From positions 44,516,001 to 44,580,000 of the forward strand of contig NC_091998.1 in NCBI RefSeq assembly GCF_044704955.1: a stretch of DNA of 64,000 nucleotides, given 5' to 3'. Positions 1,684 through 48,400 of the stretch are shown here, in pieces. The stretch comes from Pristiophorus japonicus (lineage: Eukaryota). The first letter of the stretch is position 1, and each line of letters opens with the position of its first letter. The translations under genes were made by a program, and so were the position numbers. Under the pieces are notes generated by a model. That model was not told where the DNA came from. It did not search any database and was given only the letters and a program-made list of their open reading frames with translations.

Positions 1684-4600
1684 ATGGCAGGTGTAATTGG
1701 ACATTTGGGGGAATATAGCCACAACCGGGAACATTTTAAAGCGTATGTGGATCGGCTAGAAATGTATTTCACTGCAAATAACATAGTCAAAGTTCCAGAC
1801 AATGCAGTCCAGAACCGGGCTGTGTTGGAACATAAGAAAGCGATCTTCTTATTGGAGGCGGGTCCGACATTGTACGAAACCCTTGTAAATCTGCTTGTGC
1901 CTGACGAGCCAAAGGACGCAACGCTTAAAGAGATTTTAATGAAGCTGGAGCAGCACCATAACCCCAAACCGTTAGAAATTGCTGAAAGCTATCGTTTCGG
2001 GATTTGGAATCAAAAGGCTGAAGAAAGTATCAGTGATTACATCGTAGCATTAAAAAAGTTATCGATGCACTGTAATTTTGGAAACTTTCAAAACCGAGCA
2101 TCACGGGATCGTTTTGTTTGTGGGGTGAAAAATGATGCGATCAGAAGGAAGTTATTGACGACGGATGATTGACTTTTGAGATTGCTTGTCAGACAGCGAG
2201 GTCGATGGGCATGGCCGAACAATATTCCCGAGAATGAAATAATGATTACGGTCGTCAGTCAACTGAGGTAAATCACCTGCAGGTTCAAAGTAAAAGACGG
2301 TGGGGGCCCAAAGTCTCAGAAACTGGAAATTCTAAGAGCATCAAAGTCGTGCTATAGGTGCCTGGGACAACACATTGCTCAAAGTTGTCCATACGTGAAG
2401 GCAGAGTGTTTCTTCTGCAGAAAGACTGGGCATCTTGCGAAGGCTTGCCGACTGAAGGGTAAACCAGCTTTCAAAGCTATGAGTAGGAATCCCAAGAGAC
2501 TACATGGCATGGAAGAACAACAACAGGACGAGGAGATGTTAGAGTTAAACGTCATCAGGAGCACGAGGTTAACGGACAGCGATTCGGAAAGCATCAAAAT
2601 CCACATAGATGTTGCGGGATTCAAGATACCAATGGAAATTGACACGGGTGCATCCGTGAGTGTAGTACCGGAGTTGCTGTACCTCAACAAATTGCGTGAT
2701 TTCTAACTGGAGAAATCCAAGATAGAGCTGCGAGGCTACTCGGGAGAGAAAATTCCTGTGGTAGGTCGTATCATCATACCGATGAAATATAAAGATCAAT
2801 TTCAGAACTTGCCTCTAATAGTAGTGAAAGGAGACAAGTCTGCCTTACTAGGAAGAAATTGGTTGAGCTCACTGAAGCTGGATTGGAGTAAGATTTTCTG
2901 TGTGGAAGCGAGATTTTCATTAACGGATGAGGTTATCAAGAAGTATCCGAAGGCGTTCTGCGAAACGGGCAGTCCGATCCAAGGCTTCAAGGCGAGCGTC
3001 AGGGTACAGAAGGACACTAGATCGGTTTACTACAAGCCATATTCCGTACCATTTGCACTCAAGGAGAAAGTTGAGCAAGAACGCAAAAGATTAGAGACTG
3101 AGAACATTATTTGTAAGATAGATCGATGTAATTGGGCTACACCCATTGTTGTTGTACCCAAGTCCGACGGTAAGGTAAGATTGTGTGGTGATTATAAAGT
3201 AACTGCAAACCAGGTTCTAGAGGGTAATGTCCCCAATACATTGCCGAATATAGAAGATTTGTTTACAACACTGACAGGTGGTCAGATCTTCTCAAAACTG
3301 GATCTTACGAACGCCTACTTACAGCTTGAAACTAAATGAGGAGTCCAAGTCATGACTGACTATAAATACTCATCTAGGCCTATATCAATTTAATAGGCTA
3401 CCGTTCGGAGTGTCTTCCGCTCCTGCCATATTCCAAGGGTTGATGAACCAGATTTTGCAAGGTATGGAGGGGGTAGTATGTTATTTGGATGACATACCAA
3501 TTTCAGCACCAAATAGGCAAATTCATAACATATTGAATGAAGTCCTCAAACGGCTAGAGAAGTACAGCATGCGAGTGTCTGCTCGTAAGTGTGAGTTATT
3601 TAAAAATTCAGTGGAGTATTTAGGGTACAGAGTAGACAAAGATGGTTTACATCCAACCATGGAAAAATTGGATGCAATTAGAAATGCACCCACTCCCAGG
3701 AATGTCACTGAACTTCGTTCATTCTTGGGTCTTTTGAACTATTATGGGAAGTTCCTACCAAATTTGGTTACAGTATTACATCCACTGAATGAACTTTTGA
3801 AAAAACAGGTCCATTGGAAGTGGTCAAAAAAATGCAATGCAGCATTCAAGGAGTGTAAAAGCAAATTGGAAGAGAGCACCATGTTAGTTCACTATGATGT
3901 ATCTAAGGAGATTAAGCTAGCATGTGATACCTCTCCGTATGGAGTTCGGGCAGTGATCTCTCATGTATCACGTAGTGGGGAGGAGAGACCAATTGCTTTT
4001 GCTTCACGCACTCTCAGTGCCAGTGAGAGTAATTATGCTCAAATTGAAAGGGAGCTTTGGCATTAATTTTTGGGGTCAAGAAGTTTCACAAATACTTGTA
4101 TCGTCGTAAGTTTACCATCGTTACGGACCATAAGCCCCATCAGCAATCTTCCATCCAAAGTCCCCAGTTCCAATATTAGCTGCAGCCCGAATGCAGAGAT
4201 GGGCTTTGATTTTGTCAGCATATACATATGATATTGAATACAGACGATCAGCTGATCACAGTAATGCTGATGCAATGTCTAGATTGCCTTCCCCATCACA
4301 AGTTACACCCGATAGGAAAGAAGTGTTTTATTTTTCATACACTGATGAATTGCCAGTCACAGCTGAAGAGATTGGCAGAGCAACCAAACGTGAACCAGTG
4401 ATGTCAAAAGTGTATGAGTATATTGCAAATGGATGGCCAAACCAGCTAACAGACAAAGATACACATCCATTCTTCATTCGTAGGAATTAATTATCAGTCG
4501 ATAAAGATTGTATCATGTGGGGTGTAAGAGTGGTCCAAATTATTAGGAGACCTCCATGACCAGCACCTGGGAATGTGCTTGATCAAGAGTTTTGCATGCA

Positions 4601-9746: not shown

Positions 9747-10177
9747 AGTGGTAATATTACTTGTCTAGTAATCCAGAAGCCTGGACTATTGATCCGGAGA
9801 CATTAATTCAAATCTCACCACGTCAGCTGGGGAATTTAAATACAATTGAAATAAATCTGGAATAAAATGCTAGTTTTAGCAATGGTGACCATGAAACTAC
9901 CAGATTACTACCGGTAAAAACCCATCTGGTTCACTAATGTCCTTTAGGGAAGGAAATCTGCTGTCCTTACCTGGTCTGGCCTATATGTGACTCCAGACCC
10001 ACAGCAATGTGGTTAACTATTAACTGTCTTCTGAAATGTACCAAACCGTTATAATAAAGTATACTCACCTTCTCCAGCATTGGTTCAAGAAGGCGGCTCA
10101 CTTCTCAAGGGAAATTAGGAATGGGCAATAAATGCTGGCCTTGCCAGTGATGCCCACATCCCATGAACACATTTTTA
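9747..10177 (+). mobile_element. HE1-like elasmobranch SINE
   Basis: tRNA-like head and 3' tail GGGCAATAAATGCTGGCCTTGCCAGTGATGCCCACATCCCATG shared with 46817-46860; interrupts CR1 NYRPIS|LMSVIGK. Family name from memory. Confidence 0.65.
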
Positions 10178-14380: not shown

Positions 14381-14675
14381 TTAATGGGTGTCCACAATTT
14401 CTGACTATGTATGGTCGGTGGGTGAGTCTCTACACTGGCCCAATGTTCATTAATTGCTGCCCACTTATCAACTCCTATGAGACAGCTTGGAGCAATTATT
14501 AGGATAGGAAAGGCAGCTGTATATATTATAAAACAGTGACAGAGGATGAATTATTGAAAGGCTTGCAAGGTCTCACAACGGGAGCACAGCCTCTGATAGA
14601 TGTACTAATGCAGTTGCCACTGTGAATGACACACACATCTTCTGAACATCTGTTCTCTTGCTTGTTGTTCATAGG

Positions 14676-16292
14676 ATGCCAGCACTATTGGGGCTTTTCA
14701 GCGTGTGCCTCCTGGTGATCACGGGGAGCTTATACCACCCCCGCCTGCTGAGTGATGAAGTTGAGAGTGAAGAGGTCCAGTCAAGAATGAAGGAGCAGGA
14801 GGACCACTACAAGCTGGAAATGGAGCGCCTCCAGAAAGAAGTGGATGAGAAAACTAATAGCGAGCATGAAATGAAGGTTAATAACAACGTAAGAGCAGAA
14901 AACACATTGCAGATAGATTGGAACACCTGGAATATTCTCCTAATGGTCACAATTCTGTTCGTGGAACTGTGGAGACAGGACACTTGGCCCCAGATACCAC
15001 ACAACTATAACAGCGAGGAAGAAGAGGAAGGAGAAAAGGAAAATGAATTTCCTCAACGAATTTATAGCAACATTTTGAATATTCCTGACAAATGTGTGCT
15101 GGATCAATTTTACGACACATGTATTCAGAATGGGAGTCAAGAGCCGCTGCAGACGAGCGAATTTGTTGAAAGCTTTGTGGACAATCTCTTGGAAGCCTGT
15201 AGAACCCTTTGCCAATGGGATTCTGAGCTGATCCTTGAAGACTGTGTGGGCATTGGGAGTCAGTTTGAGAGATGGGGCTGCAAGACGCCCTCGGTGTATG
15301 ATATTTTGGTTCCGATTTATCTTCAGGATGAATATTGCTTTAAACCGGAGATCTGTTGCTGTGACATCCCACCTGATAAGCAAAGTTATGGCCGGATTGT
15401 TATGGTAACACCTAGCAGCACTGACTTGGGCTGCCTGTGTAAAAACACTGAACTCGAAGGAGATGTTCTCTGCCTTATTCACAGCAAAAGGTTTGAAGCT
15501 GATGTTCGTGCCAATTGCCTGGCTTCTATCGTGTGCTCTGAATGGTATTTGGACTACAAGAAAGTCCTGAAATGGTTCAGGGTTGCACTGGCAAAATCCT
15601 GGAGCAAGGTTTGTCATAAGTACGATTTTCAACTTTCCTTCCATAATATCACTGGTTGCTGCGGTTTGAAAGTTGAGTATCAGTCGGGACGAAACATCTA
15701 CATTAAAGTCTTCCCTGCTGTGAGGCTGAAGGATTCAGACGTTTACCTCGTGTCCAACTTTTCCGATTACGCCAAGAATACTGTGCTGTCCACTACCTAC
15801 TGGCACATATCCTGTGCTGTCTGCGAATATCGATTTCTGAAAATCATGGCAAAAAGTGTGCCCAAAAACAGCTGTCACCTCAAGTGCCTTCAAATATTGA
15901 TCTTTCTAACTGAAAAGCTGCGCAGCGCTCCAGACCAGCGGATCGTTCTTGGGTCCTACCTTTTTAAGACTGTACTTATGCATCTGTTGTTAAGTCAGCC
16001 GTACTCAAACTGGCACGAATGTCACCTGGAACATAGGCTCAGAGACATTTTGAAGTACCTTGGAAAATGCTTGGATGAAAAACGGCTCCACCGATTTATG
16101 ATTGGGAATCAGACCTTTCCTAAGCAAATTGGAATCCCGGAAATGCTTCTGTATGCCGAGCCTATAAACCTCTTCCGGTCCTTTGTGACACAGCGTGATT
16201 CTTACAGTCAGGCACTAATGGAATATCAAAAACTACTAAGAGACATGGGTCCGTTAATGATGGAATGCATTAAAGATAATACAGTCAGCTGA
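14676..16292 (+). CDS. ITPRIPL1: ITPRIP-like 1; type I membrane protein with Mab-21/cGAS-like fold, 538 aa, single coding exon
   Basis: Intact ORF; acceptor ..gttgttcatag|G ATG at 14676; signal peptide, coiled coil, TM (WNILLMVTILFVELW), acidic run, EGDVLCLIH, SCHLKCLQIL, KTVLMHLL, LHRFMIGN, EPINLF motifs of the ITPRIP family; lies just upstream of NCAPH as human ITPRIPL1 does (paralogue choice rests on synteny). Confidence 0.88.
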   Translation: MPALLGLFSVCLLVITGSLYHPRLLSDEVESEEVQSRMKEQEDHYKLEMERLQKEVDEKTNSEHEMKVNNNVRAENTLQIDWNTWNILLMVTILFVELWRQDTWPQIPHNYNSEEEEEGEKENEFPQRIYSNILNIPDKCVLDQFYDTCIQNGSQEPLQTSEFVESFVDNLLEACRTLCQWDSELILEDCVGIGSQFERWGCKTPSVYDILVPIYLQDEYCFKPEICCCDIPPDKQSYGRIVMVTPSSTDLGCLCKNTELEGDVLCLIHSKRFEADVRANCLASIVCSEWYLDYKKVLKWFRVALAKSWSKVCHKYDFQLSFHNITGCCGLKVEYQSGRNIYIKVFPAVRLKDSDVYLVSNFSDYAKNTVLSTTYWHISCAVCEYRFLKIMAKSVPKNSCHLKCLQILIFLTEKLRSAPDQRIVLGSYLFKTVLMHLLLSQPYSNWHECHLEHRLRDILKYLGKCLDEKRLHRFMIGNQTFPKQIGIPEMLLYAEPINLFRSFVTQRDSYSQALMEYQKLLRDMGPLMMECIKDNTVS

Positions 16293-33491: not shown

Positions 33492-36400
33492 GTAGGGGCT
33501 CACTGCATCATTTCGTCTTGTCTTTGCTTAACATGCACACAAGTTCACTTTCCAGCAATGATCGTTGGATAGTCAGCAGCAGAACTTGTCTTCCCACCGC
33601 ATAGGTCTTACTGCACTATAACCGACTGTGCCCCTGGTTTCTTTATCTTTTTCTTCCTCCTGAAGCCCTGGCATCCTCTGGGGCAGTGTTTCTCAAACTG
33701 GAAACCGCAGACCCCTGGATCCATAGAGACGTTCCAGGGGGTCCGCAACCGGAGGTAATTTCAAGCCCGCTTCTCTTTATAAAACCGACACAGATTCAGT
33801 TCTTGTGACTTATTCTCAACGGCTGGGCCTGCCTCCTTACAGAGGCCCACAGCGCGCTCTCACTTTGCAACGAGCGCTCCCTGCCTGTCGAGCCAATTCC
33901 TCTCCCTGGCGTCACGATCCTGCGCTGACCTCCCGACACGTGATCAGAGCGCCTGCAGGGCCCTTCAAACACATGCCTGAACGAGTTCACACACACACAC
34001 ATACACTCCCACAGTGTAGCTGTTACAGAACATGCCAGTGGGACGGTATGGCAATGAGTCATGCTTCCAGCAGCATCCCAGCATGTGCATGGGTGCTCGT
34101 GCCCTCACGCACCTTGGCCAGTCTACTGACGGCTTTAAAAATTGTCCAGCACTAAGTGGCTAATAGTGGCCATCTGTTGCTTTGGAGTACCCAGAGTTGA
34201 TGTGAGAAGCAGGCACACACATCCCACTGATATCTGTAAGTAAATACCTGGTTTCTTAAAAGCATTATTAAAATGCTTTTACATACAGCACTTTCATATG
34301 AGTATTGTATAGTATTATCATTTAGATGGGGGCGTCCGTGATTACTAATCAATTTGAAAAAGGTCCTTCAACTAAAAAAGTTGGGAACCACTGCCGTTGC
34401 ATGTTGAGACATTATTGGTGACTAGCTTTACTGGTCTGAAGTTGTCATGTTTCTTCTGCCTAGGTTTGGCTGGATACTAAGCATTACATGAGCAGCTAAC
34501 TCATTCTGACTGTCACTCATTGTTGCAGGGGGACCCCCCAATCCTTTGTAACCAAGCTGTCAAATAATCAGATATCTGAACACTATTCTACCTGCATCAA
34601 ACTGTGTTCTGAAAATGTAAGTAGATGGCTGTCTTTGTGCTCACTTTAGAACTGAACCAGCTTGTCCTGTGCAATCTCAAAATGTTTCATGATTGGAAAA
34701 GAAAATGGGCCATCTCGTACTCCTAGGTCCTGTGGCTAGAATAACCCAGTACTTGTTGAATCCCTTTGAAAGGATCATCCTAAGTGCATAATCTGGGCTG
34801 ACACTCCATTGCAATTCTGACAGTGTTGCATTGTGAGAAATGCCGTCCTTCAGGTGAGGCTTGAGATCACGTCTACCTGTTCAGGTGATAAAAGCTATGC
34901 CAACAACAGGGAGCTCTCCGGGCATCCTGGCCAACATGAGTCCTTCAACACCGCCATTAAAGTTTAACTGGCCATTTATCTTAAAATCGGCAAATGGTGG
35001 CAATTTGAACTAAACAGAAAATGTTGGAAATACACAGCAGATTGGTCAGCACCTGAAAGAGAAAAAAAGGCAGATGAAGGTTTCAGGTGTAAACCCCGTG
35101 TCCTGCTGTTTATTTCTAGCTTTTTTTTGTGGGATAATGCTGGTGTAGTATGATACTAGTATGATGGTTGCGTTGCCTATACAGCATCAGTCAGTGTAAT
35201 TCATCCTGTGAAACATTGATGTGACAAAATGCTTGTTACAGTTTAGGATTTCTTTGCCCATTCTTTCACGCAAAGGACTTGGACATCATCTATGTTAAAA
35301 TGTGTTTTTAGCAAAAGCTTCTCAAGATAACCCCGAGGCTGGTGGATCTGTAGGCTAATAATTAATCATTCATTTGTGAGATGGGGAATTGCTTCTTTCT
35401 GGAACTAACCATTGGCCAATACACTGGCACATCTAGTCATGCAGAAAGACACCTAGCACCCTTGGTGTTGAAGAACTCTTTTGTGATCTCTGGGTTGGGT
35501 AAGAGGCTATTAAACTCATTAGGTCAGTCAAGCTGGCTACTCCAAGTGTTAACTCAATCTACCTTTTAGAGAGATTGAAGGAGTACACGTGCACAAGACT
35601 TGGAGATCCAGTCCAGGTCACAATGGAGCTTCATTGTTACTTTTCTGGATCCTGCTATTGCATAAGTATAAGACGGAGAGTCAAGTTCCATTTAAAAAAA
35701 GTCAGCACTCAGGCCACTTGAAGTGATTGACACCACTGAACCTATCTGCCACGGTTGTGTCTATTTGCAACACCAAATTTCTGGTTGATCCCCTTGGAGG
35801 ACAAGACTAGATTTCTGATTGGTCCCCTTGGAGAACAAGACTAGATTTCTGATTGGTCCCCTTGGAGAACAAGACTAGATTTCTGATTGGTCCCCTTGGA
35901 GAACAAGACTAGATTTCTGATTGGTCCCCTTGGAGGACAAGCCTAGATTTCTGATTGGTCTCTTGGAGGACAAGCCTAGATTTCTGGTTGGTCCCCTTGG
36001 AGGACAAGCCTAGATTTCTGGTTGGTCCCCTTTGAGGACAAGCCTAGATTTCTGGTTGGTCCCCTTGGAGGGCAAGACTAGATTTCTGATTGGTCCCCTT
36101 GGAGGACAAGACTAGATTTCTGATTGGTCCCCTTGGAGGACAAGACTAGATTTCTGATTGGTCTCTTGGAGGACAAGACTAGATTTCTGATTGGTCCCCT
36201 TGGAGGACAAGACTAGATTTCTGATTGGTCCCCTTGGAGGACAAGACACACTCAACAGTTTGTCTGGAATGTATAATTTGATCCAGCCTGCTGGAGTAAT
36301 CTAGATCTTTGCAATGTGTAATTTGATCCATTCATTGTAACAGCCAGGCTCCAAAGCTCACAGTGTTAACACTACTGCTTTCAGAGAACAGACAGGGCTC

Positions 36401-39400: not shown

Positions 39401-42400
39401 ATCTTACAGTGAAATGCTAGATTGTTTTCCCTCCAGTTCCCTTGTATAAAAATATAAACATAGAATTGTGATTTAGGGAGCTGGGAAAGGCCTTGGTTTC
39501 CTTTTTTAATAAGTTTTCAATCCCTCTATGTTCCAACATACAATGGCTGTGCTTTCTCTGTCCAGAGCTAAACCCTGATTCTACTGATGCCGAGAACGCA
39601 AAAGGCTCTCAGAAACAACACAGAAAGAAGCACTCGTACAAAACCATTGAACAGAACTTGAGCAACATCACGTACGGAGCGAGTGACATGAAGTGTGAGG
39701 TGAGATTATTTTTCCTCTCTTGAAGGTGGCCATACGATTCAGCGGGCGCCAACAATCCCTCTGCGATTGAGCAAGTGACCGTTCTTCTTGTGTAATCCTT
39801 GACAATAAACAGGCTGTTCAACCATAGACTGCACCTCCCAAACCCACAACTCTACCACCTAGAGGACAAGGGCAGCAGGTGCATGGGAACACCACCACCT
39901 AAAAGTTCCCCTCCAAGTCACACACCATCCTGACTTGGAAGTATATCTCTGTTCCTTCATCGTTGCTGGGTCAAAATCCTGGAACTCCCTCCCTGACAGC
40001 CTTTTGGCTAAGATCATGCGTACCTGACCTGACAGGGGAGTAACCATGACCAGAAAGTGGTTCTCCCTGGATCAGGAAGGTGGTTCTCCTATGCTTTTTG
40101 GAAATAGGAGGTGGGTGGGGGGGCTTGACCCGTCCACCTCCATGGCACGAACCTGGTATTGCAGTACTTCCAGGAACGGTGCTTTGGCTCTAGGCCTTTT
40201 GGCTAAGAGCAAAAACATTGGCGCAGAGTGATCCTTGAATGGGCCCAAGGTGACCTTTGGCGTTTATGACCTGACAAGTTGATCTGACAAAGAATTGGAA
40301 AGATTGGCAACGAATAAAACATAAAAAATAAAAAATAAATCTGTTCTTATCAGTTGGCGTTTATGATCTGACAAGTTGATCTGAAAAAGAATTGGAAAGA
40401 TTGGCAACGAATAAAACATATTTAAAAAAAAAAAAATCTGTTCTTATCAGTTTAATATCCCCTATGGGGACATGATATTGAATTGATTTTTGGACAGGGA
40501 GCTGGATCAGGGGCATGCCCCGTCCACTCCATGCACCGACCTGGTATTGCAATATTTCCAGGAACGGTGCAACTTCGCCTCTCGGCCTTTTGGCCTAAGA
40601 TCAAATATATTGGCGCAAAGTGATCTTTGGCGTTAGAGTTGATCTGGAAAGAAATTGGACATAAAAAAAAAAATCTGTTCTTTCAGTTTAATGGAACAGG
40701 GGCTTGCCCTGTCCACTCCACGCACCGACCTGGTATTGCAGTGTTTCCAGGAACGGTGCAGCTTCCCCTCTCGGCCTTTTGGCTAAGATCAAGTGTAAAT
40801 AGCGCAAAGTGATCTTTGGCGCTGGAGTTGATCTGACAAGAATGAAAAAAAAATCTGTTCTTATCAGTTTAATATCCCCTATCTGGGGACCAAATATTAA
40901 ATAGATTTTTGGAACAGGGAGATGGAACAGGGGCTTGCTCCGTCCACTCCATGCTTCGACCTGGTATTGCAGTGTTTCCAGGAACGGTGCAGCTTCCCCT
41001 CTCGGCCTTTTGGCTAAGATCAAGTGTAGTAGCGCAAAGTGAGCTTTGGCGTGGATTTGAGCTGACAAGAATGAACATGAGAAAAAAAAAATAAGGACTG
41101 CCTGAGGTTTTGCTTGAAAGAGAGTGCTGGCTTTTTTCATGCATTGCTGCTGAACGGGAGTGCTGAGTGCTTTTGAAGTGTTGCTGCTCAATGGCACTCT
41201 CTGCGAATTGACTGATTGCAGAAACTCGTCTTTCCAGTTTGGCCACGTCTGGCTTTTTGGCTCGGGTCAAGCACCAATTGGGGAGAAGAAGAAATCTGCA
41301 TGTCGACCGACCAATGTGGTCCGCCAAGGTGCCGGACTGGCACCACGAAGGATTGAAGGCTTTGGCCAAAACACAAGCCCAAAGGAGGAATCTGCAACCC
41401 GGATGGCGGCCAACCGAGCGGCGAACCAGGGCGTCCGAAACACCATCCGAGTGACTGTAAAGAAAGTGGAAGGACAGACGATGATCAACCGGGACCTCTT
41501 CATGAAGAAAATCCTGCTTGAAACCTGTGGCATGAAAGTCGCGTATGTCTTCGCCTTGCAGGACATCCGGAAGAGAGGTTACTTTGATGTAACCTTCAGA
41601 AACGTCACCTAATGCCTGAAATTCCTGAAGGGATTGAAGGAGGCGAGTGAACCACTGCGGTCAGTGCTGACTTGGGAACCACTGTTCACCCTCCCGTTGC
41701 AGAGGAAATAATGCACATGTACAACCCCCACATCCCGGTCATTGATGTGCTGACGTTCCTCACCAGGTATATCGATGGGGCAGGAAACAGCATCGACCTG
41801 AAAGACTTCCACGGGATTTGGACCAGCAAGCGCCAGATCCAGGTCACCATGAAAGTGGACGCCAGCGGAACCATCATGCACCCCCCCACCAGCTTCGCAA
41901 CCGGAGGAAGTCGGGGCTACATGGTGTATGCCGGACAACCCAATGTGTGCCGAACCTGCGGGAAAGCAGGCCACGTGGCGGCAAGCTGCAAAGCAATCAT
42001 TTGCCGCAACTGCAAGAAGGAAGGACACCAGATAAAGGACTGTAAAGAGAGCAAGTGTGATCAGGCTGGACATCTGTACCAGGCCTGCCCCAAGCGGAAT
42101 TTCAGTTATGCGCAGGCGGCAAAGAACATGGTGACATGTGAGGAGAAAGCTGAGGAGTGCAACGCCCAAGAGGAGACCGACACCTCCCTCCCCTCCAAGA
42201 CACCGTACGAACAAGCCACTGCCCTAGTCGACACTGACCAGGAGGAGGAAGGAAAGTCTGCCACGGCAAGCCGCCAGACACTAGCACCCAGCAGTGAAAC
42301 TCCCCCCCCCCCCCCCCCCCCCACCCCCGAGACACCGAGTCCATGGAAGAGGAGGGATCTGAAGCAGAAGGAAAACAGGAATGGCAGCTCGTCGAGAAGA

Positions 42401-45400
42401 AGGCGGCCCGCAAGTCAAAGGAAAAGGGACCGCCTGCAGAAACGAGAGGCAAAAAACGGCTACTGTCCACGACGGACAGCAGTGGCTACAGCTCATCCGA
42501 TGATGAGGGGCGAGGCAAAAGCCCCCACTACCACCAGCAGAAGAAGAGGCAAAACGCCAATGCGACCAGTGCAGTCCAGCTCCGGGACCCCGGGAGCAGT
42601 GAAGTCACCAATGCACATCTGCTCTGGATTTCTGGGAGCAACGAAGCAACAGATGAAACCCAGCTCTGGATTTCCAGGAGCGAAGAAGCAACCGATGCAA
42701 CCCCGCTCCGGATCTCTGGGAGCGACGAAGCGACAGATGCACCCCAGCTCTAGAACGCTGTGAGCGACGACACCACAGGGGATGCACACAAGGAACAACC
42801 AACACCAGGTGAGGGCAGCCCAGTTGACATGGAGGACTCCCCGTCCACACTGCTCGTGTCCCCTTGTCGAACCATCCCCAAGGCAGAGGACAACCCATAT
42901 CTCAGCCAAGGTGCAGTAGAAAAGTTTAAAGTTAACCTATGTATACGGGAACAGGTCACAGGGCCAAAGGACTGAGTGTTCGAAATGTAATTTTTGGATT
43001 GTAATCACCAATTTAAAAATGGGTTTAAAGATTGCATCCATTAATGTGCGTAGCATTAAGACAACTACGCGATGTGTTTCCACCTTGGGGTACCTCGCCA
43101 AGGTCAAGGCAGACCTGCTATTCTTGCAGGAGCTGCCGCACTTCAGCAGTTACCGGCAGTGGTTGCAATGGTGGTCCCACGGACCATCCGTCTGGTCAGG
43201 AGGCAACGATTGCCGTTCCTCCGGCCTGGGCATTCTCCTGCGGGAGGCCACTTTACCATCACCGAAGTTAAGGAGGTGATGGGTGGCTGCCTCCTCATAG
43301 CAGATGTATTGTATAAAAATGTTCCTCTAAGGCTAATTAACGTGTATGCCTCGCCTCTCAGAAGCGAGCGGCTGGCCCTCCTCCAGCAGCTCCCACTGCT
43401 GCTGGGGACATCCAGACCGGTCGTTCTGGGCGGTGATTTCAACTGCATCATCGATGCGGCTGGACGATCCAGCAGAACCGACAGCAAACTGGACACCACA
43501 TCCAAACTCCTGATGGACGTGGTAAAAGATGGCAAGCTGTGCGACGTCTTCAGCAACCCTGCAGATGGAGCACCGCGCAGATACACCTGGTCGAGACCAG
43601 ACTGGTCCGTCCATTCCAGAATAGACTTCCTGTTTGTGTCCCACATGCTCAAGGTCAGATCCACCGACGTCATGCCAGTGTTCTTCTCTGACCACTGCCA
43701 CCTACTGGCCGACTGCCTCCCACAGGAAGACCAGAAAGTTGGCAGGGGGATATGGAAGCTCAACGTGAAACTGTTGACCCCGGAAAATGTTGAGGAACTC
43801 TAGGGATTACAAAGGTTTGGGAACCGTAAAACCCCTCTAAGATTCTCCGATGCACTGGTGGGAAACAATCAAGACAAACGTCAAGAGGTTCTTCATCCTC
43901 AAAGGTGTTCAGGAGGTGAGAGGGAGACAGAGGGAATTGTCCCAACTCCAGAAGAGTATGCAAAACCTGCTCCTGCTGCAGTCGATGGGGATCGATGTTG
44001 CAGAGGAACTCCAAGAGGTGAAGGGCCAGCAAGTCTCGCTCTTTGCCTCAGAATCCTCCAAAATCATTTTCCACTCCAGAGTCCGCTCCGTCGAGCAGGA
44101 TGAGACGTGTTCGCGTTTCTTCTTCCAAAAGGTACACTGGGAGCTCTGTGATCAGCAGCCGAAAGGAAGAAGATGGTTCTGTGACGTCTTCACAGCCCGA
44201 CATGCTGAGGATCAGCAAATCCTTCTATGCCGGGCTGTACAACGTCAAGCCCACAGACCGCGCGGCCTCCCTGTCTTTCCTGTCGTCTATCTCAGAGGTC
44301 TTAGACGACAGCGAGCGGGAGAGTCTGGACCACCCGCTAACTCTGGACGAGATGACAAAGGCCATCCGGTCCTTTGCGAAGAGTAAAACTCCCGGAAGCG
44401 ACGGCTTACCGGTCGAGTTGTATTCGGCTCTGTGGCACTGGATGGGCCCAGACCTGCTGGAAGTGTACTGGGGTATGCTTCTGGCCGGCAACATGTCAGA
44501 ATCAATGAGGAAAGGCATCATCACCCTCATCTACAAGCAGAAGGGGGAGAGGGAGGAAATCAAAAACTGGCGGCCCATCTCGCTGCTCAATGTGGATTAC
44601 AAGATCCTGTCAAAGGTCATTGCAAACAGGGTCAAGTCTGCTCTGGAGCTGGTGATCCACCCGGACCAGACCTGCGCTGTTCCCGGCAGGAAGATCTCTG
44701 ATAGCCTCGCTCTACTCAGGGATACAATCGCCTACATGCGGGACAGGAGGGTGGACACCTGTTTAATCAGCCTGGACCAGGAGAAGGCCTTTGACAGGAT
44801 ATCGCACACGTACCTGATGGACGTGCTCTCCAAGATGGGGTTTGGGGAGGATATCCGCAATTGGATCCATCTGCTCTACACAGACATCAGTAGCACAGTT
44901 CTAATCAACTGGTGGGAAACTGAAAGCTGTCCCCTCTCCTCTGTCTTGTTTATGTGCTTTATCGAGCCCTTTGCCGAGTCCATCAGGAAGGATGTGAGCA
45001 TTAGAGGGGTGACGATTCCAGGCAGCAGAGGCGCTCAGGTCAAGACCTCCCTGTACATGGATGACGTCACCGTCTTTTGCTCGGATCCGCAGTCGGTCCG
45101 CAGATTGCTCACGATCTGCGACCAGTTTGATCTGTGGCCTCGGGAGCGAAGGTCAATCGCAGCAAAAGCGAGGCCATGTTCTTTGGCAACTGGGCCGACC
45201 GATCCTTTATTCCCTTCACTGTTAAACCAGATTACCTGAAGGTGTTGGGAATATGGTTCGGAGCGGACGGGGCGTGCTCCAAAAACTGGGAAGAGCGTAT
45301 TGCCAAAGTGAAACAAAAACTAGGATGATGGAAGCTGCGTTCCCTCTTCATCGCAGGAAAGAACCTGGTCATCAGGAGTGAGTTGCTCTTGGTGTTGTTG

Positions 45401-48400
45401 TACGTGGCGCAGGTCTAGCCCATCTCGCGCTCCTGCGCCGCGGCAGTTACCCGGGCCGTCTTCCACTTTGTCTGGAGGTCCAAATGGACCGTGTCCGCAG
45501 AGACACGATGTACAAATCTCTGGACAGTGGAGGAAAGGATGTTCCGAACATGGCCCTCATCCTGATGGCCACCTTTGTGTGCGGCTGCATCAAGCTGTGC
45601 ACCGACTCCCGGTACGCAAACACCAAGTGTCACTACGTGCTGAGGTTCTATCTGTGTCCGGTATTGCGAAGGATGGGTCTGGCCACGCTGCCGCGAAACG
45701 CCCCCACCAGTTGCACCATACCTGTCCTTCGTGGAAAAGTTTTTTTAGAAAAAACCCCTTTGACCACAAGGCCTTAAAGAAGTGGTTGGCACGTAAGGTC
45801 CTGGATGCCCTACAAAAGGAGGAGAGGGTGGACCCTGTCGGGTGGTTCCCCGAGCAGACTGTCAAACTCATCTGGCAGAACGTTTCATCGCCAGAGCTTT
45901 CACACAAGCACCAAGACGTAGCTTGGTTGGCGGTGAGGAGGGCCCTACCCGTCAGATCCTTCATGCACAGCCGGGGTTTCAGACACACAGCACTCTACCC
46001 CCGAGTTGGCTGTGGTGTCATCCATCTCCTTCGGGATTGCCCCTTTGCAAGGCAGGTCTGGAAGGAGATGCAGTGGTTGCTGTCGAGGTTCATCCCAAGC
46101 AGCTCCGTAACACAGGACTGAGCTCTACGGGCTGTTCCCAGGGACACACACTGACACAGACATCATCTGCTGCTGGAGGGCCATCAACTCGGTGAAAGAC
46201 GCACTTTGGTCTTGCCGAAACTTGCTGATCTTCCAGAGCAAGGAGATGTCCACGTCTGCGTGTTGCAGACTGGCGCAATCCAAGATCCAGGAGTATGTGC
46301 TGAGGGACGCACTAAAAATTGGTGCAGTCGCCGCAAAGGCACGATGGGGAAGAGCCACGGTTTAAAGCCCTTCCGCCATGGTAAACCCAGGGGCTGGAAT
46401 CAGTATCCCCTCGGGCTGTACTTGTAAACTTTTTGTATACATAGGTTTTTTAAGATCATGGTGCTCTATGTAGTGCCATGAATAATGCAAGTTCTGTTTA
46501 GTAATGTATGTTGCAAAGAAATGTAACTGTACCCTCACCCATTCCGTGTACCGTATAGTGTCACTAGTAAAGTAATTTGATGACTGTATTACAATGTATC
46601 CTGGATTGTACTGAAATATACCTCAAAATGTAAAGCAAGCAAATGTGTTGAACGGAATTGCCATTAGCATCCAAATGTAATGTATGGAATTGCTGCCCGC
46701 ATCCAAATGTACTGAACTGCCTTCCAATGTATTGTGCACATTTTTATATGAATAAAGTATATTTAGAAATTTTAAAAAACTGCAACGGTTCAAGAAGACT
46801 GATCACCACCTTCTCATGGGCAATAAATGCTGGCCTTGTCAGCGACGCCCACATCCCATGGATGGATTTTTTTTTAAAAGATGGAATTGTGGCTGTGCTG
46901 AACCCTGTCCTTCTTGACTCCACATATGCACACTTCCAGGAGAAATCACTGAATACCAATCAGGAGCAGGGGCCTTGTTTTCTTTTTAACATTAACATGG
47001 AACTATGATATTGTGTACCAGGAAGCTGAGGATGGTTCTCATCTCCTTTTATAATTTTTAGAATCTTCTTCTGTGTGTTTGTCCCATTGAATTATGTAAT
47101 TATAGTCCATGGAATGTAGATCTTTTTCTAAGTAACAATTTTACATCATAATGAGCTGATGAAATGAAGAATGGATAGCAACTTACATTTCCCAATATAA
47201 ATGAGGAAAAGAAGATGGAGAGATCTTTGTTTTAAGAAGCCAAACAAAAGAATCCTAGTTCCGAACACACTGCAGGTGAAGTTTAATGGACACCTTATAT
47301 TTTGCAGATTGACCCAATGTTCCAGAAAGCTGCCTCGATGTTTGATGAATGCAGCACAGTGGGGGTTTTCATGGTTAATCTCCAGACGTATGGACACTCT
47401 GCTCAGTTGCTTTTTGATTCAGATGTCAAGCTCATTCAAACTGGTCCTGCACCAGAATTGCCGCCCATTGGCCACGTGGAGATATCTGATCTTGGAGGCA
47501 AGTTTTTTTTTAAATTATCGCTGAATGGTAACATTTCTGTGTCTGCAGAAGTACTTTTACAAGTTTAGTATCCCTAACGATTGTTATCTTATCTTCTCCT
47601 CCCGAAGAGGATAATCTATGCTAATCCACTGTATCCGGTTGCATGCTTCTAGTCACTTACATTAGAATATAATATAGGAAGCAGAAGTAGGATATACGGC
47701 CCCTCGAGCCCGCTTGATTTTCATATACCTTGATTCCCCTAGAGTCAAAAAATCTATCAATCTCGGCCTTGAATATACTCAACGATTCAGCATATACAGC
47801 CCTTTTGGGGTAGAGAATTCCAAAGACTCACAACTGTCTGAGTGAAAAAAACTCAGTCTTAAATGGCCGACCCCTTTTCCTGAGTTCTAGACAGGGGAAA
47901 CAGCATCTATTATCTTCCCAGCTCTCAGCTTCTACCCTGTCAAGCCCTCTCAGTATCTTATATGTTTCAATCAGATTACCTCTATCATTCTTCTAAACTC
48001 CAGAGAGTATAGGCTCAATCTCTCACTCTTGGACCATGATTACACGCTGATTCCGAGTAGCATTTCTGCTTTTGGTGAATCTTTCCAGTTAAGGTTCTCA
48101 GCTCACTGGACTGTAAGTGTCAGTGTGATTGGCTAGAGCAAGTCAGTTTGGGTGATAGCTAAGTCACTGATTAGGTCCACAGTTATTTCTCTAACATGCA
48201 ATTAACAGTCAACTTTCTTTATGTAATGGACAGTACCTGGGGAAGGGCTGGCTCCAGTCTGGTGTGGTAATGTTAATTCATAACTGGTTGCCGGATTAGT
48301 GACCGACGGCCCTGAAATCCGGTGGCGCATTCGACCAGCCCTGGTGTGCCTGCGCTGTCTGGCAGTGATTATAAATCTACCAATGAGTTTTCCCAGCAAA

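Follow-up and report, generated by a model that had tools for sequence, protein, structure and literature searches.

A tandem array of split U2 and U1 snRNA pieces heading a decayed Tx1-clade LINE in a shark NCAPH intron

The element and its host locus

The window, which is the whole stretch of 64,000 nucleotides of Pristiophorus japonicus that was analysed, includes an intron of the gene NCAPH (condensin subunit 2) that carries a decayed LINE of the Tx1 clade. The whole element spans 39999-46779 (6.8 kb) and consists of a 5.7-kb coding LINE joined to a 1.1-kb head of snRNA-derived sequence (39999-41090). The NCAPH exon downstream of the element is 100% identical over 63 amino acids to a sawshark protein, and the next 10 of the 14 matches are proteins of sharks or rays. 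The host intron, the flanks and the LINE body are as follows.

39701..47307 (+): NCAPH intron carrying the element (Pfam Cnd2 on both flanking exons; tblastn exon map)
39820..39998 (+): left flank, a piece of an older repeat
41355..42970 (+): ORF1 remnant, broken, end approximate (Pfam PF23057, PF23058, PF00098)
43019..46365 (+): ORF2 remnant (Pfam PF03372, PF00078, PF13966; tblastn)
46366..46779 (+): 3' UTR, with AATAAA at 46751-46756 and a short A tail at 46774-46779
46780..46870 (+): right flank, an older repeat and not U2 (matches window 10077-10174, E=5e-12)

By Pfam, the ORF1 remnant encodes two ZCCHC3-type RNA-binding domains and CCHC zinc knuckles, and the ORF2 remnant an AP endonuclease, a reverse transcriptase and a zf-RVT domain. 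The tblastn alignment of ORF2 shows seven frame changes and at least two in-frame stops, from which the decay since insertion can be roughly estimated at ~1.5-3%. The C-terminal region of ORF1 also contains a 42-bp in-frame tandem repeat (3.6 copies, 42621-42770). The two flanks are presumably the halves of one older LINE tail; an uninterrupted copy of this repeat was not found, with 0 loci in a pattern scan for the left flank. A target-site duplication is absent, the longest words common to both flanks being 8 nt and lying away from their ends.

Elsewhere in the window, another NCAPH intron segment (35777-36247) is a 34-bp minisatellite with 13.9 copies, a 95% match and an ATTGG box in each copy. 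Upstream of NCAPH lies an intronless open frame of 548 amino acids (14646-16289), which may resemble the ITPRIP-like genes that neighbour NCAPH in mammals, and two further open frames (2707-4063) look by eye like the protease and reverse transcriptase of an LTR retrotransposon.

Comparator U2 loci and relatives of the reverse transcriptase

Comparator U2 loci were collected with a pattern of U2 nt 39-61 followed within 12 nt by CCCTAT, which returned one locus in genome contigs and five in metagenomes. The pattern favours genes with a similar stem IIb and would have caught the 9-nt-deleted U2 form described below, which occurred in 0 of these 6 loci. The comparator set comprises four intact U2 genes (three distinct: L121, L122 and L123), two U1 genes, U5, U6 and 5S, together with two LINE ends inserted in U2 (L124 and L125). 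L121 is a contig in a Cetobacterium MAG and is presumed to be fish host DNA; the others are likewise presumed to come from fish, and there is no shark U2 among the intact references.

Keno elements, reportedly described by Kojima and Fujiwara in 2004, are said to be U2-specific LINEs of the Tx1 clade. L124 has their geometry, running from U2(1-51) through the element and its poly(A) to U2 from nt 39 on, and the 3' junction of both U2-inserted LINEs, L124 and L125, is an A-run followed by TCTGTTCTT. Both this geometry and the site at which an A-run meets U2 nt 39 agree with the published descriptions of Keno, as far as the consulted sections of those papers go (PMC4640811, PMC6136364).

Several features of the comparators are worth recording in their own right. 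L124 (1-5240) is a metagenomic, intact two-ORF Keno-like LINE in a U2 gene with a 13-nt target duplication, and L122, which shares its upstream flank, appears to be the matching empty U2 array. In L122 (1-4528), U2, U5, U6 and U1 form a cluster with a tRNA that repeats with a period of ~2.56 kb. In L123 (3626-3818), L125 and L126, U2 occurs as a 5S rRNA-linked variant whose Sm site reads GCTTTTTGG and whose SL IV is altered; in L125, a LINE is inserted in this variant.

With regard to the reverse transcriptase (RT), that of the window is 38% identical to the L124 RT, and the two do not group together. In a tree of 43 rows (the window, L124 and 41 of 120 listed relatives, 42 having been picked and one dropped for short coverage), the RT of the window falls within a clade of 9 rows alongside salamander and frog Tx1 proteins (100/96). 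This clade is sister (94/85, unstarred) to an 11-row clade with the closest matches of L125, and L124 falls elsewhere. The relatives of the LINE include a protein named transposon TX1 149 kDa, and the LINE is likely to be Keno-related.

A family-specific U2/linker pattern found 0 loci in metagenomes; against viral contigs, the U2 pattern gave 0 matches, the window RT had 0 confirmed of 5 candidates, and a 14-mer SL IV pattern hit 120 viral stretches, none of them U2-like among the loci scanned.

Architecture of the head

The head is built of head-to-tail U2 copies, each split between nt 38 and 39, which is the Keno insertion site, with the splits filled by a ~50-nt linker that ends in an A-run. 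In an unpermuted reading it comprises five units, that is, five U2 5' pieces and four 3' halves (monomers A to D).

39999..40022 (+): start of unit 1, U2 nt 12-35, a probable 5'-truncated insertion end (22/26 match to the intact U2 5' end)
40021..40089 (+): 5' piece of U1 that includes stem-loop I, with the loop segment repeated at 40070-40089 (Rfam, shuffle null, alignment)
40093..40182 (+): monomer A, the 3' portion of U2 from the Sm-like site on (stem III, rebuilt, 40107-40141; SL IV 40145-40182)
40183..40220 (+): unit 2, diverged U2 nt 1-38 with stem I longer by two pairs (26/38 identical to the gene)
40221..40436 (+): linker 1 and A-run, U2 nt 39-52 (40340-40353), then a partial second linker and A-run
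40437..40573 (+): monomer B, U2 nt 39 to end with a 9-nt deletion after 40459 (Sm site 40485-40493; SL III; SL IV)
40446-40459/40474-40487: stem IIc of monomer B (14/14 pairs)
40574..40673 (+): unit 3, U2 5' piece (40574-40612; 32/39 identical), linker 2 and A-run
40674..40762 (+): monomer C, running from U2 nt 39 on and shortened by a ~60-nt deletion
40763..40853 (+): unit 4, U2 5' piece, linker 3 and A-run
40854..40993 (+): monomer D, running from U2 nt 39 to the end and missing the 9 nt that B lacks, here after 40876 (Sm site 40904-40912)
40994..41031 (+): unit 5, U2 nt 1-38, adjoining the element without duplication (35/38 identical)
41032..41090 (+): linker 4 and A-run, leading into the LINE 5' UTR and not U2 nt 39

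Rfam calls U2 three times in the head (53-108 bits). The U1 piece, overlooked in the initial annotation along with the split at nt 38|39 and the LINE itself, makes unit 1 with monomer A a U1/U2 chimera; Rfam matches it to U1 with E=0.0013 and 19.7 bits, which is under the gathering threshold of 69.5, and its local score of 61 compares with a null mean of 17 over shuffles (p=0.003). As a separate observation, the sequence TGACCTGACA, which is the altered 5' end of the U1 piece in unit 1, appears again in linker 1 and in its copy (40018-40034, 40260-40276 and 40357-40373), hinting that the linker may contain a degenerate U1 start.

The first ~50 nt of the LINE adjoin U2(1-38), and the same 50 nt with an A-run are found inside three upstream U2 copies, each of which picks up again at nt 39. 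TCTGTTCTT directly follows an A-run four times in the head (40340, 40437, 40674 and 40854), and a 97-bp direct repeat lies within the linker 1 region (40221-40436). The linkers are homologous to the LINE's own start; no other source was found in 120 comparisons with U1, U2, U5, U6, 5S and LINE ends, where two comparisons outside the U1 zone reached p<0.02 (best 0.007, with the U2 Sm region), which is chance level. A U6 origin of the linker, covered by these comparisons, was rejected, and a linker hairpin was significant in one of five folds.

At the other boundaries, U2 3' ends meet the next U2 5' start within a few bases and without a spacer, which points to joining at the RNA level and leaves no room for a promoter or a 3' box. 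The units thus lack the upstream promoter and downstream 3' box of a functional U2, and also its continuous branch-point region, every unit being split at 38|39.

The units seem to differ in age. The identity of three 5' pieces to intact U2 rises toward the LINE (26/38, 32/39 and 35/38), monomer A is 76-79% identical to intact U2 and C and D 85-92%, and among the U2 5' pieces of the head an intact GUAGUA occurs only in unit 5. In monomer C, two states on the 5' side of the SL IV loop agree with B, and from the loop on several agree with D; judged from these few sites, C may be a B/D recombinant. The proposal that all monomers were amplified from one ancestral unit is supported for B to D, which have the 9-nt deletion, the junction spacing and homologous linkers in common, and not for A, a separately built U1/U2 chimera. 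With A built separately and C mosaic-like, the array is not a simple amplification of one unit.

The age gradient would be directly explained if a separate U2-derived SINE had inserted repeatedly at the nt-39 site, forming a tandem stack with the newest copy nearest the 3' end, and the LINE had taken this stack with it by read-through (5' transduction) on moving. The available text of PMC4494074 describes SINEU-3 copies in tandem with a duplication sandwiched between them, and the stretch of 14-16 nt of U2 that separates linker 1 from its partial copy resembles the 13-nt duplication of L124. However, the last linker is followed by the LINE 5' UTR and not by U2, the 97-bp repeat could be a slippage duplication, and a free-standing split-U2 unit was found neither within the window nor in the metagenome scans. 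We regard this origin of the units as unlikely.

Motifs and folds of the monomers

All the motifs quoted in the initial annotation are present. The 13-bp helix of monomer A (40107-40119/40129-40141, with two G-U pairs) is the MFE fold, at -23 kcal/mol with z -2.75 and 2 of 200 shuffles equally good; it is a re-registered hairpin, the native top stem of which carries a G.A mismatch. The variant stretch GGGGCATGCCCC of monomer B is found at 40510-40521, and the stem I described as CTCT..AGAG corresponds to GCTCT (40187-40191) pairing with AGAGC (40206-40210) in unit 2, for which the fold gives -14.8 vs -9.8 kcal/mol. The SL IV motif CCTGGTATTGCA occurs in all four 3' halves (at 40152, 40540, 40729 and 40960) and TTTTTGG in A, B and D (at 40095, 40487 and 40906). 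Measured against all three distinct intact U2 genes, B and D are missing an identical stretch of 9 nt from the 3' strand of stem IIa.

The Sm-like site of monomer A reads GCTTTTTGG, without the usual A, and the intact gene L123 reads likewise. Monomer C is without an Sm site, which was lost in its ~60-nt deletion together with IIb and the 5' strand of lower stem III. B, C and D have no 3' strand of stem IIa, and A lacks the whole region. Since stems IIa and IIc are described as mutually exclusive in the sections consulted of PMC4712673, B and D can form only IIc, a helix with 14/14 pairs in B and 12/14 in D and in all three intact genes. B and D fold into a long hairpin from nt 39 to ~112 (-24.3 and -21.2 kcal/mol; 0 of 200 shuffles as good), which is not new, since two of the three intact genes fold alike in silico with similar strength (-19.8 and -22.9). 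In SL IV, the upper stem and AUUGCA are intact in all four monomers, and the fold energy is -11.6 in A and -9.5 in D vs -16.7 kcal/mol in B and C.

The suggested loss of splicing-active parts is real: the units have no stem IIa, only the last of them keeps GUAGUA intact, and the 5' end of the U1 piece is altered. Much of this loss follows from the Keno-site split and from age. The head cannot splice. The companion suggestion, that the protein-binding sites were under selection, did not find the same support. It corresponds to a reading of the head as a selected snRNP mimic, in which an Sm site with its 3' stem-loop, SL IV and U1 SL I would serve as docking sites for Sm, U2B''/A' and U1-70K so that the LINE RNA is protected or imported, with the splicing parts purged. 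An Sm site followed by a 3' stem-loop is the assembly signal known as the 'snRNP code', the 5' side being dispensable in vitro according to the portions available of PMC6954390, and so Sm binding to B and D would be possible. The conservation of the SL IV upper stem and AUUGCA in 4/4 monomers would fit such a mimic as well. Against it, C has no Sm site and A's site lacks its A, the first copy of the U1-70K loop is mutated although its stem is kept, and SL IV is weakened in A and D. The case for selection for Sm binding is weak, with no site in C; selection for Sm or U2B'' binding is improbable, and the mimic as a whole is held to be a poor candidate, for which the substitution patterns below provide further evidence on both sides.

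Compensatory change and constraint on folding

The initial annotation had further proposed that the diverged monomers keep their U2 stems by compensatory change, which is not supported. Among B, C and D no native pair is altered on both sides. Over L121, L122, B, C and D, both-side changes affect 3 of 24 native pairs, each in an intact gene and none in a monomer (A and L123 were left out of this count as their indels misalign). The pair changes in the monomers are either one-sided, such as U-G to C-G in B and C, or breaking, as in SL IV of D and in the stem III top and lower SL IV of A. The upper stem III of B (GC GC GC GC CG), which had been taken for compensation, equals that of the intact gene L122 pair for pair, so that it is a natural U2 variant, and the possibility raised at the outset, that such stems simply reproduce functional U2 variants, is largely what was found for B. 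Most of the apparent 'compensatory' changes are ordinary U2 variants. In the 13-bp helix of A and in the lengthened stem I of unit 2, pairs have been gained, which is not compensation.

These observations bring in another explanation, namely a one-off or neutral mosaic whose units were captured or refreshed from the shark's U2 variants, so that the pattern was shaped in real U2 genes, with the perfected hairpins arising by template-switch mutation. Of the 23 columns that vary among the monomers, 7 contain no state other than those found in the three intact genes, the SL IV loop of D and C matches L121, and the top stem of B matches L122. Furthermore, the arms of the A helix are two transitions short of perfect complementarity, one of them at a CpG, with the 5' arm close to the reverse complement of the 3' arm as in a templated copy that then decayed; the helix fits one template-switch event followed by decay, a mutational mechanism for perfected hairpins that the consulted part of PMC8794818 describes. 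The common deletion, junction and linker speak against independent capture of whole units, however, and the older part of the head has several separate hairpins with gained pairs. Stem I, which is invariant in the intact genes and therefore provides the cleanest test, is still strengthened in unit 2 (p=0.005), with p-values of 0.22, 0.28 and 0.36 for units 1, 3 and 5 (4 of the 5 copies were tested). A one-off or neutral mosaic appears doubtful.

Among B, C and D, 10/52 unpaired vs 4/60 paired positions differ (p=0.042), which would favour constraint on pairing, but without the CpG columns the figures are 8/46 and 3/45 (p=0.11). The differences are also concentrated at sites that vary among genes, with 8/33 gene-variable vs 6/100 gene-invariant columns (p=0.006; p=0.12 with only two genes). 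Both patterns speak for an snRNP mimic, and the absence of both-side changes in the monomers and the weakening of the paired/unpaired difference without CpG columns count against it; the enrichment at naturally variable sites would be expected just as much from refreshment of the units by real U2 variants, which the available text of PMC4494074 describes for SINEU-2 heads. Between B and D, 12 of 112 columns are different, and one native pair is broken vs 3.9 expected (P=0.054).

The stem III of A is more stable than 99.9% of neutral simulations, for a stem chosen after the fact. Young modules too look over-stable in comparison with fish ancestors (combined p=4e-5), so that the over-stability null is inflated, as a neutral mosaic would have it. 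The combined stability p-values were set aside as biased for this reason, and so were simulations with D as the ancestor, D having a private break.

Taken together, there is a modest excess of pairing-tolerant and hairpin-strengthening changes, which selection on folding, refreshment from real U2 or template-switch repair could each explain. Support for constraint on folding in general is modest, its null being confounded, and we give such constraint an even chance.

Proposed origin of the head

The reading that we prefer, with a probability of about 0.68, is that the array is a composite 5' head of a Keno-related Tx1 LINE, made from by-products of U2 targeting. In this model, a source copy inserted in a U2 gene would be read from the U2 promoter, so that its RNA starts with U2(1-38). 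Loss of the body between an internal A-run and the poly(A) tail, or priming at the A-run, would then leave a 'split U2' mini-gene. The reverse transcriptase could subsequently jump from the 5' end of the LINE RNA to the mature 3' end of the split-U2 RNA, and the resulting unit would be duplicated and recombined. A template switch would contribute the U1 piece, and the head would end up old in its 5' part (A, B) and young in its 3' part (D). Finally, the composite would have inserted outside U2 with 5' truncation and then decayed.

In support of this origin, the junctions at which an A-run meets TCTGTTCTT in the head are those found at the 3' ends of L124 and L125 and at the Keno site, and the linkers match the LINE start. 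End-to-end template jumping is documented for the R2 enzyme in the consulted part of PMC8594491, and recurrent 5' gain of U1 and U2 pieces with recombination with real snRNA is described for SINEU and Tx1-Mar in the accessible text of PMC4494074. Counting against it, one copy was seen and a family-wide head is thus not established; the 3' flank is not U2, the RT is 38% identical to that of L124, and the LINE is the only linker source found in the comparisons made. Moreover, template jumps add sequence at the 5' end, so the 5' units should be the youngest; the observed gradient is reversed, and the model therefore needs an extra step of recombination or refreshment.

Promoters of snRNA genes are external to the transcribed part, and the head is therefore unlikely to be a promoter. 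It is most likely a passenger or a folded protective leader. A far more elaborate scenario seems to us a long shot, namely that the shark LINE family made its former target into a multi-unit, splicing-dead snRNA mimic, locked in IIc and under selection for hairpin stability, which would place Sm, U2B''/A' or U1-70K on the LINE RNA for 5'-end protection or nuclear return.

Comparison with known systems

Three known systems resemble parts of this element. The first is Keno, with which it has in common the APE-type Tx1 anatomy, the U2(1-38) 5' junction and the junctions between an A-run and U2 nt 39. In contrast to Keno, the 3' flank of the shark copy is not U2 (another repeat follows from 46780 onward), a target duplication is absent, and it is within the head that the nt-39 junctions are found. 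The second is the 5' UTR of rodent L1, where tandem units of ~200 nt likewise stand at the 5' end of a LINE and 5' ends have been exchanged between families, as far as the sections consulted of PMC5381506 and PMC3600994 describe; the L1 monomers are promoters, whereas the shark units derive from snRNAs, whose promoters lie outside the transcribed part.

The third is found in crocodilians, where SINEs and some Tx1-Mar LINEs carry heads of U1 and U2, reported in the accessible text from crocodilians only (Kojima 2015, PMC4494074). In both cases, U1- and U2-derived pieces were repeatedly added at the 5' end. The layout of SINEU-2, with U1 5' and U2 3', is matched by shark unit A, which also parallels the partial U1 duplication of SINEU-1G, and Tx1-2_Crp and Tx1-11_Crp are autonomous crocodilian Tx1 families with a U1 or U2 head, comparable to the shark LINE. 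Tx1-Mar is characterised as an autonomous Tx1 element with an snRNA-derived 5' end, and the shark element has this composition. The present element differs from SINEU and Tx1-Mar in its shark host, in its tandem array of five U2 5' pieces and four 3' halves, in the Keno-site split of its units with the first 50 nt of the LINE as filling, and in the loss of stem IIa that the units share. SINEU elements are short and non-autonomous with their own poly(A) tail, whereas the shark array is joined to a coding LINE, although its units do end in an A-run; Tx1-Mar prefers Mariner-N4 targets, and the flank of the shark element is an older repeat. A literature search, with Repbase and most subscription papers outside its reach, found no shark element of this kind and no tandem split-U2 head, and the U2 3'-half motif is absent from the Utopia supplements.

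A single decayed copy speaks to architecture and not to function. The differing ages of its units nevertheless mean that a genome-wide set of copies would directly test for selection on snRNA folds in a transposon leader. The origin and role of snRNA heads were left open in the available text of the SINEU paper (PMC4494074), and the present locus suggests a route to them, from U2 targeting through a split-U2 mini-gene to template jumping and amplification. The shark head can thus be seen as a more elaborate version of the crocodilian SINEU and Tx1-Mar heads, which extends snRNA heads to an autonomous shark LINE with a tandem array.
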